NCBI GenBank assembly: GCA_951406725.2
Contig: OX597819.1
Span: 118,730,001 to 118,794,000, forward strand
Length of the DNA stretch: 64,000 nt
DNA from: Octopus vulgaris
Lineage: Eukaryota
Reading direction: 5' to 3'
Shown here: in pieces, positions 8,711 to 60,602 of the stretch
Layout: each line of letters begins with the position of its first letter
Numbering within the stretch: position 1 is the first letter of the stretch
Program-made: the position numbers and the translations under genes
The notes under the pieces: model-generated
Databases searched by the model: none
Told to the model about the DNA's origin: nothing
What the model saw: only the letters and a program-made list of their open reading frames with translations

Positions 8711-9515
8711 TTTGTTTCAGTCATTTGACTGCGGTTATGCAGGGGCACAGCATTGTAGGTTTTTCGTCTAAGAGTTTGAAAATCTTGCACGTATGCTGTT
8801 GGTCAGTATTGCTGCGCAAATATGTTACGGGGGCATAAAGAAACCAATGGCAATTGTCAAACAGTAGGTTACTTACACAAAGACTCACAAGCACTCACAC
8901 AGAAAACCCATATATATATATATATATATATATATATATATATATATATATATATCTGTGTGTGTATGTATATATATATATATATATATATATATATATA
9001 AACAAGAAGGGTAGTAATATTATTTACTACCAGGTGCCCAGCACAAAAGACGAATTAGTCATAAGACAAAAATATTATTCATATAGAAAAATATTATTCA
9101 TGTAGTTATATAATTAAGGGCTCCTAAATTAAGATGCCGAGTGCTGGGAACACAAAAAGGGGATGAATTTATCGAGAGTGAAAATCAAAAACGTTTACCG
9201 ATAACTTTAACAACTCGAACCGCACGGTTTCTGCTTCTTTCTAGCAAAACACAGAATATGTTTGCTAAGGCTGGCTTCGTCAGCGAGTCGCCTAAATTGA
9301 ATCGAGGTCTGCAGCGATGTGGGACCATGTGTTGATCTCGACTATATATGTGTGTTTGTTTCTATGTTTGTGTGAGCGCATGTGTAAAAATCACTCATAA
9401 ACTCAGGTCTACCCGTGTTTATAGTATAGGACACTTCCAAGATGCTAAGTAATGGGACTGGACACGAGAGCCTGTGCTTGCAAAACGGGTTTCCGAAACA
9501 CACAGTCATACATAC
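8711..9515 (-). mobile_element. Old SINE family B copy split by an insertion into its internal (TA)n tract
   Basis: 3' half (TTGTTTCAGTCATTTGACTGCGG...) at 8711-8910; degenerate tRNA-derived 5' half at about 9385-9515; a hammerhead module lies between them. Confidence 0.6.
9210..9291 (-). ncRNA. Type I hammerhead ribozyme in a PLE pLTR-like module (module about 9001-9345)
   Basis: Minus strand: GCGACUCG-CUGACGA-long stem II (UAGCAAACA/UGUUUUGCUA)-GAAAC-CGUGCG-GUU-CGAGUUGU; 8-bp stem I including G-U pairs, intact core. Confidence 0.8.
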
Positions 9516-10479
9516 ACCGACGTAATAGAATTTCAAACGTAATTTTCATAAAGTATAACTATTCTTGCTTTTAAAAAGGTTTTTACCTTTATAACATTGT
9601 GTAAAAGAAATACGCCTACTAGGTTTTCAGAATATGAAACTGCTGCATGAAAATGAAATCTGCTTCGAATCTGAACTATATATGAACTAAAGTGACGAGT
9701 ATATAATGTACGTGTGTGGGGAAGGTGTATATATATGTATGTGTGTGTGGTGTGCTTGCGTGTGTTTGTGTTTGTGCGGATGTGTATGAATGTAAGTATA
9801 TATCTATGTACGTACACATAACATATTTTTTCATTTGAAAAACCTTAGTTTAGCGTAGAAAAATGTACATAATGTAAATTAAATAAAATGTATTTTTCTT
9901 GTTATTTCAATACATATTCACCTCGTTTTTCGAGAAGAATCTGATGACAGATAAAAATAGTATCTCAAAGCAAGATGTTAATAATTCATTAAAAAATAAT
10001 TAAATTAAAGTTGGTTTCAATGGTTTCCGAATTGTCTATGAAAGTCGATATAGAAAGAGATAGAGAAAAAATGTGTATGTCTATGTCAAAGTAAAAGAAT
10101 TTTCGAGGATAGGAAAGAAAGAGAGAAAAAAACGAACAAAGAAATCAACGAATGAACAAACAAAGACATGAGAACGAACAATATTGGTGTGAAAAAAATA
10201 ATTATGAGAAAAATAATGAAAAACTAATATTGAAAGAAACCGCTTGGGATTTCAAATCCGAATTAAATGATGTGTGTATAATCGGAAGGAGACTTAGAGA
10301 TTGAGATAAAGAATTGCAATATAAAAATTTAAGGAGGAAAAAAAGAAATACAATGCATGTAACTTAATATCAAATTACTAAAATCGGAAAACTGTTACAA
10401 TGAGTATAAACATTCTGACGTGAGGTGACAGAATATTTTGAGTATTAAAGTAAATACTATCATATCTAATACGTTATTT

Positions 10480-10816
10480 TCTACTGGAGGCCCAGAGCAC
10501 AAAATGTCTCGGAAGAGGGCCAGTCGATTAGATCGAAATGATTAAAGGCACGTTTGAATTCAGAACTTAAAAACAGACGAAATACCTATTTCTTTACTAC
10601 CAACAAGGGGCTAAACACAGAGAGGACAAACAAGGACAGACAAACGGATTAAGTTGATTATATCGACCCCAGTGCGTAACTGATACTCAATTTATCGACC
10701 CCGAAAGTATGAAAGGCAAAGTCGACCTCGGCGGAATTTAAACGCAGAACGTAACGGCAGACGAAATACGGCTACGCATTTCGCCCTGTTTGCTGACATA
10801 GCTGCCAGCTCGCCGC
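10480..10816 (-). mobile_element. SINE family A, long form with partial second unit
   Basis: Reverse complement of the family A head at 10801-10816; after GTAAAGAAATAGG the body restarts at TATTTCGTCTG. Confidence 0.8.
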
Positions 10817-11394
10817 ATTAACATCTCTAATATGCTATGGGATAAATATCTCCTGAGCTGTTCCTCCTTTAAGGATTTATAAGATAATATGAAATACACT
10901 GTGTTTATTTCCACTGTAAATCGCTTTCCCAGAACAGAGACTTCTGATTTTGCGCTAATTTCAAAACTGAATAAGTTACTGATTATGTAGTAGCATCCCT
11001 GCATTCATGTATGTAATGATTTCAGATGTCACTTTCGGAAGTTGATGTTTGATACTGTGAAGAGTAATAATATTTGTATAGTTATCTAGAGCTTTATTTT
11101 GTAGGGTGACACTTAGATTACTGTCAGTCTTACTAATCAAGGGCACACTTACCTCAATCTGATACCTTCAATTATCCGCAGCAATATATTTCCGGATCGT
11201 ACTGGGTAGAAATACACTTGTCAGTATGGGAAAAATAATCGTGCGAGTGAAGCATAAAACCGTGAAAGAAAGGAAAAAATAAGATGAAGCGTGGAATATG
11301 CTCATCAGTGTAATAAGATGTTACGTAGGTTCAGTGTATGAAATAATTTATACAATTACTGAACAAGCGCCGCACTTATATTTATATGTACATA

Positions 11395-11563
11395 TATACG
11401 ACGGGCTTCTTTCAGTTTCCGTCTACCAAATCTACTCACAGGAATTTGGTCGGCCCGAGGCTATTGTAGAAGGCGCTAGCCCACGGTGCCACGCAGCGGG
11501 ACTGAACCCGGAACCATGTGGTTCGTAAGCAAGCTACTTACCACACAGCCAATTCTACGCCTA
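11395..11563 (-). mobile_element. SINE family B, 5' (tRNA-derived) half
   Basis: Reverse complement of GGCTGTGTGGTAAGTAGCTTGCTTAC...GGTTCAGTCCC...GGTAGACGGAAACTGAAAGAAGCCCGTCG. Confidence 0.88.
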
Positions 11564-13580
11564 TTTGTTAATTTATTGACTGAAGATTTTCTCTTGATAT
11601 CAACAAAGACGTTTCACAGTTTTCAAAGATCAGTTAGGATAACACGAAAAGTAAAAGGCTGAAATGCCGAACAGATAGGATCTGACAACATTTAGACTTA
11701 TAGGAATGAAAGGGAGACAAATGATTGTCACGTGGCCACCTCTCTCATGCTTCCATTTTTGGTAACCTAAAAGTTTACAATCATAAACATTTTAGCACAT
11801 AATTAATGCCATTATAAAAGTGAAATTTATGAGACTATACTGCATCCGAATTTAGGAGGTTTAATCCAAACTATATTAATACAAATGTTCGATACATTCT
11901 TGATATCACTATTTCCACTGTGATAGATCAAGTGAATATAGTTCATTGTACAAATATTATTCCCTTTTACAAAATTCGAATACATCATATTTCTCTATAT
12001 ACTTATTTGCGTTAACTTATTTATTGGTGGAATATCTTAGAAGTTAAACGAGTAATACTAATGAGTTATGCACAAATTTTAACTTCATTTATATTCAATT
12101 TACCTCATGCAGACATTTAGACTGATAAACTGTCATGTGAATTGCATCAATGAATCATATAACTCGACAGAAAGCTGGAATTATAACATTGGGAATCGTA
12201 TGAATAAATTATGAATTATATGATGAGAGCGCATGATATGCGACGCACACAAATGATCTTTAAACTAATCTGTTTCGATACGGTAAACATAAATAGATAA
12301 AAATACTCTTGAATGATATTCGGATAATAATTGAGTTTTCCATTGAGATTTTGGAAGAAATTTATTATTTGTTTATTATTAGCTTTGTCGTCAGTGACAA
12401 TTAGGCTTCTGGTTTTGTATAATTGAAAGAGAGAATATAAAGTAATAAAAAATAATTTTATATATATATATATATATATATATATCATAAATACCAATAT
12501 AGTGAATACAAAATAGGCGTAACATCGACATAGAGCGTCACAATAAAAATACTACTGCTGCTGCTGCTGCTGATAATGATGATGATGATGATGACGATGA
12601 TGATTACGATGATTTTAACACTAAATAACTTCGTAAATATAAACTTTTCTCAAAAACTCTAATAGTTTATATTTACGAACTTATTTCGTGATAAAATTGT
12701 CGTATTTCGGTCAATTCAACCAATAAATGACGTGTATTCAGCTGGATACAATTACTGCTGTTGTTTGTCAACAACAACTTCTGGCGGTGTATTTCACCAA
12801 CATATCTGAATTTATAAAAGCCTTGTCCAATAGTTCCTTATCTTTATTAGTCTAGCTCAATAATAAATTATGTTAGGAGTGAAAGTTTATATTTCATAAG
12901 TATTTATTCATTTATTTATTTTATTCTATCAAATTTTACTTTTTACTCTATGTTGTTTTATTTATTTTTCTTAATTCTTGATTGTATTTTATAAGTTTTA
13001 CGTACCCTAGCGTTAAGTTAATATGTATTTTAAGTCTTTTAACCGTTTCGATATGTATAATAAATAATAGATTGCCTGGAATGTCTTCCAACTTAATTAA
13101 ATATTAATAATAACTGTACACACTTTAATTAAAATCTACGTACTAATTTTCTAATTTAATATGGATGGACAATATATGACATTTATACCAATAAACCTAC
13201 TTGAGTTTTCCTTATGCTAAACTCTCTAAATGAATATATTGATCTATTATTACTTTTCAATTCTAATATAACCAAATTTCCTCTCCTTTCTAAGGTCTAT
13301 ACCATTTTTTATACTATGATTTTCATGCATACATTTTATGAGTTAACACTTTGCAGCCGTTTACTCAACATGCAGGAATTGAACATCTATTTTGTAAATT
13401 TCAAACTAACTTTGAGGAGATTCGACTTTCAAATAACTTTTCATTTTCATTTTATTAATTAATGACTATTGTTATAAAGGTCTTGAATAGAAACAGTCGC
13501 AATTCTTTAATTAAAAAATAACAATTTACTATTCATCTCTCGATTTTCTTATCTTATCTTATATATATATATATATATAT

Positions 13581-59662: not shown

Positions 59663-59733
59663 CTGCGTATATATGATGGTAATGTTTGTAACAGTAAAAA
59701 CTGTAAAATTCCGGAGGCAGGAACAACTATGTG
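59663..59733 (-). CDS. Candidate 71-nt internal exon
   Basis: Acceptor CTTATTCTCACCTTCCAG, donor CAG|GTAAGT, two of three frames open. Confidence 0.33.
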
Positions 59734-60147
59734 CTGGAAGGTGAGAATAAGTGGATTTAAAAAAGCGATAAAAATGTAACCTTAAGACATACGAAGGAAC
59801 AAATTGAGAATTAGAAGTGTTTAATTAAGTGGTAGCTATACTGCAAAAAGCTATTTAATTTTGAAAACTAGATTATATATGTCTGAATTTGTACGGGGTA
59901 AAGTGTACTATTAAGTTATTTGGGAAAACACATAGTAATGAAAAAAAAAGAGAAGACCTGTTTGTAATAGATCTGTATATAGAATCAAAATTCATTTATT
60001 AGGTGCATATATGTGTACCGTGTGTGTGTGCATGTTTTGATATGTATATGTGTATGTGTGTGTGTGTGTGTGTGTGTGTGTGTGCGTGCGTGTGGGCATT
60101 GTGACCGAAAATGTAAACACATTGTATAATGATAGTCAGTTTTTATG

Positions 60148-60372
60148 CTCTTTTACTTTTTCAGTCATCTGACTGTGGCCATGCTGGAGCACCACCTTTA
60201 GTCGAGCAAATCGACCCCAGGACGTATTCATTGTAAGCCTAGTACTTATTCTATCCGTATATTTTGCCGAGCCGCTACGTTACGGGGACGTAAACACCAG
60301 CATCGTTTGTCAAGCGAATTTGGGGGACAAACACAGACACACCAACATATACACACACACACACACACACAC
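60148..60372 (-). mobile_element. SINE family B 3' half (5' half at 62307-62471)
   Basis: Tail and body up to the internal CA/TA tract. Confidence 0.88.
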
Positions 60373-60557
60373 ATATATATATATATATATATATATATAT
60401 ATATATATATATAACTATATATATTAATAAAAAAGAATTCCAACCTTGTCTGATTTACACGTTTCATTTACAATCTTATAATGATATATTATAAGATAAT
60501 ATATTATAATTGAATAAAATAAAATGAAATAGTAGAATGTTAAATGTTCATTCTGAT

Positions 60558-60602
60558 TGAACTAGTACTTTCATGCATTGAATTCTGCAATCTTCGGGTT
60601 CA
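60558..60602 (-). ncRNA. Minimal type I hammerhead in the PLE pLTR (U4C change)
   Basis: UGAAC-CCGAAGA-U-UGCA-gaauucaa-UGCA-U-GAAA-GUAC-UA-GUUCA. Confidence 0.75.

Follow-up and report, generated by a model that had tools for sequence, protein, structure and literature searches.

A 64,000-nucleotide stretch of the Octopus vulgaris genome (assembly GCA_951406725.2, contig OX597819.1, positions 118,730,001 to 118,794,000 of the forward strand; the whole stretch is called the window here) raises the question of which genetic elements carry its hammerhead ribozyme motifs. An initial annotation had listed eight hammerhead sites and read them as a dense set of sequence-unrelated, retrozyme-like modules, derived from Penelope-like elements (PLEs) and lodged in (TA)n tracts. 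We found a type I hammerhead motif at every one of these sites, exactly where annotated or a few bases away; all of them belong to repeat families, and several of the window copies are damaged. In our judgment, the hammerheads are very probably carried by two kinds of element that both end on (TA)n, namely the 3' ends of coding PLEs (families B, C, F, and G) and non-coding tandem retrozymes (families A, D, E, and probably I), the latter likely inserted by PLE enzymes. The elements and their motifs are arranged in the window as follows:

9001..9342, minus strand: 5'-truncated copy of family E, covering positions 113-454 of the 454-bp unit, with its 3' end on (TA)n; hammerhead at 9211-9290 (minus) with a CUGACGA core, a branched stem II, a near-palindromic stem III, and a predicted cut after GUU.
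13587..14398, plus strand: fold-back of a family A subfamily (79% identical to A) between two TA tracts, with an inverted arm at about 13587-13860 and a direct arm to 14398; damaged hammerheads at 13766-13821 (minus; shortened stem I) and 14063-14114 (plus; A6>U).
21004..21314, plus strand: family C, folded-back 3' end of a coding PLE; hammerhead at 21077-21121 (plus), 3' half alone, the 5' core being gone at the fold-back of the copy.
23982..24313, plus strand: family B, folded-back 3' end (pseudo-long terminal repeat, pseudo-LTR) of a 5.6-kb Hydra-type PLE; intact hammerhead at 24090-24133 (plus).
30118..32068, plus strand: family F, truncated Neptune-type PLE with a reverse transcriptase (RT) remnant and a GIY-YIG domain to 31250, ending on (TA)n; minimal hammerhead at 31902-31939 (plus) with G12>A in the window copy in addition to the family-wide A6>U.
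57269..57702, plus strand: family D, fold-back copy of a non-coding tandem unit of about 464-489 bp; hammerhead at 57400-57466 (plus) with a damaged cut triplet, the U of NUH being changed to C.
57788..58243, minus strand: family A, truncated copy of the 566-bp unit with its 3' end on (TA)n; intact hammerhead at 58074-58136 (minus).
58337..58600, plus strand: family I, an old repeat; decayed hammerhead at 58418-58475 (plus), absent from the initial annotation.
60425..62248, minus strand: family G, truncated Neptune-type PLE with RT at 61814-62248 and GIY-YIG at 61100-61540, ending on (TA)n; hammerhead at 60558-60602 (minus) with a family-wide U4>C.

We took as type I hammerheads motifs that combine a CUGANGA and a GAAA core with NUH and three stems, stem I being the open one. 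A strict motif descriptor accepts four of the window motifs (at 14067, 24094, 58130, and 60597). The remaining motifs are damaged copies, and the majority core of the family is intact for A, B, D, and E and, in the other copies, for C. The core of family E is invariant in 19 of 19 other copies, the window motif itself having an A-A mismatch besides its branched stem II. For family C, a CUGAUGA core lies upstream in 18 of the 19 other copies shown, and the ribozyme is complete in these relatives, its stem II being long. Families F and G contain one fixed core change each: A6U was present in 16/16 copies of F and U4C in 16/16 copies of G, whose relative at locus L220 carries the usual core. G12, which is replaced by A in the window copy of family F, is retained in all 15 other copies. 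Every family has a palindromic or near-palindromic stem III, which bears out what had been noticed at most of the sites, and folding predicts an intermolecular duplex and no stable hairpin. A hammerhead shape was not obtained for all isolated motifs in minimum-energy folds, and no Rfam hammerhead family was among the 150 of 187 window matches listed, of which the top ones were microsatellite matches to microRNA models. In the old family D, conservation is 0.96 in the core versus 0.89 elsewhere; in family I, the core is kept no better than the remainder. Within the F group, one stem I pair is changed on both sides among eight sequences that had been picked by a pairing descriptor, a score matched by 1 of 500 shuffles. 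A-related families exchange whole stems, as seen without formal alignment; L126 was misplaced and therefore excluded from alignment A1.

The strict descriptor found no motif in the reversed window and a total of two in 30 block-shuffled windows. We also applied it to a sample of the 2.8-Gb genome (227 contigs) consisting of sixty 10-kb stretches at preset positions (600 kb), where it detected 17 motifs from many families versus none in the reversed, the complemented, and five shuffled samples. Extrapolation yields about 79,000 intact-looking motifs genome-wide (46,000-127,000), which is a lower bound, since the descriptor does not count the U3-A8 core found at the ends of an intact 781-amino acid PLE family (see below). 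The special density attributed to the window was rejected: with four motifs seen versus 1.8 expected (P=0.11), it is ordinary for this genome. At least seven further hammerhead sequences unlike those of the window were observed at the sample loci L159, L173, L183, L188, L189, L210, and L214, and in several of them stem II is long or branched and its base contains a mismatch (U-U, A-A, or C-A).

The window is rich in microsatellites, and the genome sample contains 510 (TA)6 tracts, about one per 1.2 kb. The suspected enrichment of hammerheads next to such tracts was clearly recovered in the sample: (TA)6 lies within 300 nt downstream of 13 of the 17 motifs versus 15% of random positions (P=3.5e-8), and upstream of 7 of the 17. 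At the window sites, (TA)6 was present within 350 nt downstream in nine of ten cases and within 600 nt upstream in four of ten. The description of the modules as bounded by (TA)n therefore applies mainly to the 3' side. Among the best-hit loci, (TA)4 lies within 45 nt of the end in 24/28 loci of A, 23/26 of B, 18/19 of C, 13/19 of E, 15/15 of F, and 14/15 of G; the exceptions seen in A and E mostly continue into the next unit.

Which elements end at these tracts? The families at 21.1, 24.1, 31.9, and 60.6 kb are, judged from their sequence, the 3' ends of coding PLEs and hence not retrozymes, because RT and/or GIY-YIG endonuclease frames are located upstream of the same ends. They have neither the lack of coding capacity nor the short tandem unit of a retrozyme. 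Two family B copies 5.6 kb apart (L121, L122) enclose RT and GIY-YIG frames with DKT and CxCX5C motifs, which corresponds to the partial-tandem pattern of pseudo-LTRs. In family C, a GIY-YIG frame lies upstream of the same end at L070, L072, and L078; the endonuclease is the sole domain seen, and from it family C would be Hydra-like. The fold-backs of B and C have unequal arms with the shorter arm at a fixed site, and both families show the pattern of inverted copies and tails. Families F and G contain a CX2-5CxxC linker, and remnants of RT and endonuclease precede their hammerheads within the window. Both RT and C-terminal GIY-YIG domains are present in B, F, and G, interrupted by frameshifts. 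The Pfam GIY-YIG matches of G and C were under the curated cut-off and those of B and F were absent, the PLE clades being assigned by motif. First-look searches gave 1761 (B), 1595 (C), 3170 (F), and 1672 (G) candidate relatives, which are not copy numbers. The short copies of these four families are ordinary 5'-truncated, often folded-back insertions.

An unbroken frame of 781 amino acids encoding RT and GIY-YIG domains of the Neptune type was observed at L340:1245-3587 (G000:C16:20835500-20841500). The element ends on (TA)n, and its 3' hammerhead has a U3-A8 core. This PLE is probably still active, since the length of its open frame recurs at many loci. Its RT gave no significant BLASTP match to that of family B. 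Further PLE endonuclease remnants are located at 35584-36340 (plus strand; Neptune-type) and 7287-7469 (minus strand; close to family B), and no intact hammerhead was seen behind either of them.

The families at 9.2, 13.8/14.1/58.1, and 57.4 kb are non-LTR retrozymes by DNA-level tests. A, D, and E consist of non-coding head-to-tail units of 454-566 bp with one hammerhead per unit, and the longest ATG frame in one monomer, read as a circle, encodes 39, 39, and 41 amino acids, respectively. As a correction to the non-coding islands in which most motifs were thought to sit, two window motifs lie directly behind PLE coding sequence. First-look candidates, again not copy numbers, amount to 2257 for A, 717 for D, 1252 for E, and 155 for I. 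Family E is young, since its best 40 matches are 97-100% identical, and it forms arrays of up to about 10 units. Family D is old (72-86%), and two units 464 bp apart were seen. The relatives of family I show fold-backs and the ACCCT end motif described below, and family I is probably a fourth non-coding family. As annotated, the flanks of the window motifs are unrelated except for one pair (13.6-14.4 and 57.8-58.2 kb, 79% identical). Outside the window, the last 165 nt of A are about 70% identical to a 599-bp unit at L159 with a different ribozyme and also resemble other sample loci. Therefore, A is part of a wider superfamily that keeps its 3' module.

We inspected 90 family A loci, taken in list order from the 449 obtained by an end-pattern search; a few of them represent both ends of a single insertion or nearly identical copies. 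No coding element was found upstream of the end in these 90 loci, where the upstream sequence was unit sequence, inverted arm, or unrelated flank. No dataset recorded as RNA was listed as containing family E. Its sequences were detected only as contigs in three runs guessed to be RNA and in one other, and these contigs contained no joints or ends. In the otherwise unrelated A and E units, a similar GCG(C/T)CTGCGCA stretch is located upstream of the ribozyme (about 101-120 in A and 71-90 in E). We take it to resemble an NRF1-type promoter word, and it could be an internal promoter. At L120, a family E copy is inserted in a TA tract directly behind a PLE end; such nesting can mimic a fused element.

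How were the non-coding units inserted? Their 3' ends are fixed and their 5' ends scattered, and copies are dispersed over all large chromosomes, with 449 exact family A ends and 130 exact family E junctions on many chromosomes. These 449 exact A ends directly on (TA)n compare with 0 for the reversed pattern. The distance from the predicted ribozyme cut to the 3' end is 288 nt in A and 217 nt in E (217-288 nt in the non-coding families). Joining at the NUH site, as expected by the initial annotation for RNA circles, is therefore not mirrored in the DNA, where the retrozyme boundaries lie this far downstream. An inverted arm is present in 69 of the 90 family A loci; 56 of these 69 arms end at unit positions 472-491, about 83-94 nt before the main end. 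An arm crosses the unit junction in 38 of the 90 loci. Of 22 family E fold-backs counted by hand, 16 have one arm that reaches 454 and another that stops at 347-383. The ends coincide with TATA-like words, and the word ACCCT is located 8-13 nt before the main end in each of A, D, E, and I; it is echoed as GCCCU in the RNA at the second end of A and E. Tails, inversions, and partial tandems have been described for PLEs (PMC8557442), and the tail pattern was traced to two internal RT start sites (PMC11167929). By analogy, the fold-back anatomy of A and E is the two-start "tail" signature of PLEs, and the template is read through the ribozyme. Taken together, the retrozyme-like reading of the window was right about the many parallel families, the TA targeting, and the PLE-type insertion marks. 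A, D, and E recur with the same boundaries as tandem units without an open reading frame. As a whole, however, this reading was supported only in part, since B, C, F, and G, four of the seven families it covered, turned out to be ends of coding PLEs.

These features suggest that retrozymes A, D, and E were likely pasted in by PLE enzymes. A PLE protein, probably a dimer, would nick both strands of a TA tract (compare PMC11167929 and PMC8557442). Each DNA end would then serve as the primer for cDNA synthesis, which would start at an internal position of the RNA, at either of two fixed AU-rich sites lying 217-288 nt beyond the ribozyme cut, and the enzyme would read across the ribozyme, often beyond the unit junction. 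Since the arms often run past this junction, the template would be either a circle or an uncut multimer, which DNA alone cannot separate. The two copies would halt at scattered places and be joined head to head, giving fold-backs with one longer arm. The RNA itself is predicted to arise from multimeric transcripts that are cut by the ribozymes as dimers via the palindromic stem III, and the monomers would be ligated into circles (by analogy with PMC7229834 and PMC4209133).

A number of points weigh against this reading. Most loci entered the analysis because they resembled the window copy or matched an exact end pattern, a choice biased toward young copies and TA-adjacent ends. Among 89 endonuclease matches in 1.65 Mb, no 3' end of a coding PLE clearly shares sequence with A, D, E, or L159, the best match reaching an E-value of 7e-5 over about 40 AT-rich bases; nor was a partner PLE found among 30 GIY-YIG loci, a small part of the 6136 GIY-YIG candidates. 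In vitro, RT started at sites without homology to the cut DNA, and cleavage was not needed (PMC11167929). Only one of nine Xenopus retrozyme dimers was cleaved (Li, Clavereau and Pollet, bioRxiv 10.64898/2026.07.22.740005), and the fixed A6U and U4C cores of F and G may reduce activity. In addition, a pre-set test on family A, leaving out one array cut by the locus edge, revealed no excess of 5' ends at the cut site (10/89 versus 10.5% expected, P=0.46). In family E, 13 of 23 5' ends of a first set lie near the cut, counted post hoc, and 9 of 44 in a second set, which is weak (P=0.12); this second set excludes 6 of 50 rows (two stop inside the selecting pattern, two are complex, and two come from the first set). 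A pile-up of 5' ends at the ribozyme cut was therefore rejected as a general feature. Because this clustering is absent in A and weak in the second set of E, the genome does not give a firm sign of cleavage.

The same observations bear on a rival explanation, in which read-through transcripts that were never cut serve PLE enzymes as templates for the non-coding units, with the ribozyme as a passenger and without participation of circular RNA. We regard this as possible but would not favor it. It accounts for 5' truncation in A not being raised at the cut, a PLE acts mainly on uncut RNA in vitro (PMC11167929), and more-than-unit copies fit multimers equally well as circles. It does not readily explain why the ribozyme core is retained in families whose flanks have diverged beyond recognition, nor does it fit the weak excess of family E 5' ends near the cut or the abundant circles formed by other animal retrozymes (PMC7229834).

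It is very improbable that the units are DNA-level minisatellites or hairpins resembling miniature inverted-repeat transposable elements (MITEs), generated by unequal crossover, slippage, or a DNA transposase, with the TA link reflecting mere microsatellite abundance. What fits target-primed reverse transcription is that 3' ends are fixed while 5' ends scatter, that the arms differ in length, that copies are dispersed over all large chromosomes, and that the TA bias is on the 3' side, even though many copies resemble inverted-repeat elements, (TA)6 tracts are as common as stated above, and slippage could also produce the shorter ends at internal TATA words. The least credible explanation, that every short module arose by random truncation of a coding PLE and that no true non-autonomous element exists, holds for B, C, F, and G but is refuted for A and E because these form tandem arrays, repeating head to tail without coding sequence between the units, and no coding element precedes the end in the 90 A loci.

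Within the preferred reading of non-coding retrozymes inserted by PLE enzymes, the shared end motif allows a more tentative and rather speculative extension. A swarm of sequence-unrelated retrozyme RNAs might hijack PLE enzymes via one short shared start signal instead of a shared pseudo-LTR, with priming by base pairing of UAUA in a circular template to the nicked TA tract. In each of the four non-coding families, the proposed signal lies at the main end and consists of a UAUA stretch preceded at 8-13 nt by the word ACCCU. ACCCT is not enriched before TA tracts generally (10 of 1017 borders versus 0.9% of random 22-mers). At 5-19 nt before TA tracts, a strand bias was observed (CCCT 31 versus AGGG 5). 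The occurrence of ACCCT in A, D, E, and I could also be explained by remote common descent.

Both kinds of element are already known, and our finding is mostly that of a new host with a very large load. In the literature searched, which most subscription journals lie beyond, no paper describing octopus or cephalopod retrozymes was found. Families A, D, and E resemble the metazoan non-LTR retrozymes (PMC7229834; bioRxiv 10.64898/2026.07.22.740005) in several respects: the head-to-tail units are non-coding and contain a single type I hammerhead, stem III is palindromic, GC content is low (0.34-0.38), the units co-occur with PLEs, and mobilization by PLEs is proposed. The units of 454-566 bp are larger than those of coral, mussel, and axolotl (220-390 bp) and lie within the 51-972 bp of the bioRxiv preprint. 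The (TA)n location, the fold-backs, and the two-site end pattern are not described for retrozymes in the accessible parts of these two sources. Xenopus retrozymes have 21 PLE matches, whereas the octopus families yielded no sequence link to any known pseudo-LTR; RNA circles have been seen for known metazoan retrozymes and are a prediction for the octopus units.

The hammerheads of PLE pseudo-LTRs (PMC4209133) are likewise minimal type I motifs with an extra base after A9 and a palindromic or missing stem III. They include a U3-A8 variant, as at L340-type ends, many single motifs from truncated copies, and some opposite-strand pairs. The accessible text of that paper does not mention the family-wide core changes of F (A6U) and G (U4C); the term U4C occurs once in that of a paper on natural variants (PMC3088659). 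Compared with the PLEs of PMC8557442, family B is like the Hydra clade in DKT, CxCX5C, and the C-terminal endonuclease, whereas F, G, and L340 are like the Neptune/Nematis type in the CX2-5CxxC linker. The (TA)n preference, partial tandems, inverted 5' copies, and tails are shared as well, and the supplement lists Hydra-1_Obim, from octopus, with (TA)n preference. Tails are longer here (about 70-140 nt versus 30-40), and family B measures 5.6 kb versus under 3 kb. The in vitro reactions of Poseidon PAc (PMC11167929) are similar in that both strands are cut in AT-rich DNA and two RT starts inside the RNA bound the tail. They differ in that the start sites of Poseidon PAc are non-homologous to the target, whereas the octopus ends fall at TATA-like words matching the TA tract and the templates are non-coding.

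The window also contains other repeats. Long hairpins without a hammerhead are located at 12614-12695, 32323-32405, 44915-45333, 51669-51922, and 51948-52375; four of them have relatives at other loci, and they may be MITEs or decayed fold-back insertions. A broken LINE-type reverse transcriptase gene, which we take to be CR1/L2-like by its motifs, occupies 26625-29999 (plus strand), with a second copy of its 3' end at 14563-14896. Two abundant families of short interspersed repeats, each with at least six window copies, are probably SINEs. Members of the first lie at 1023-1259, 10554-10820, 15127-15344, 33282-33514, 34929-35307, and 41067-41305, and members of the second at 22080-22420, 45383-45744, 49039-49351, 55907-56274, and 60144-60324.

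The load of about 79,000 intact-looking motifs, as a lower bound, is on par with the 126,000 of axolotl. The mobilization of animal retrozymes by PLEs had already been proposed and rested so far on co-occurrence and sequence likeness. The insertion anatomy of A and E, with two fixed internal starts, read-through of the ribozyme, more-than-unit arms, and a TA target, yields exact predictions for an in vitro test. If the shared start signal proposed above were true, such priming by pairing of UAUA with the TA tract would represent a telomerase-like use of the PLE reverse transcriptase, and retrozyme mobilization would be directly testable with the young families A and E together with the intact 781-amino acid PLE.

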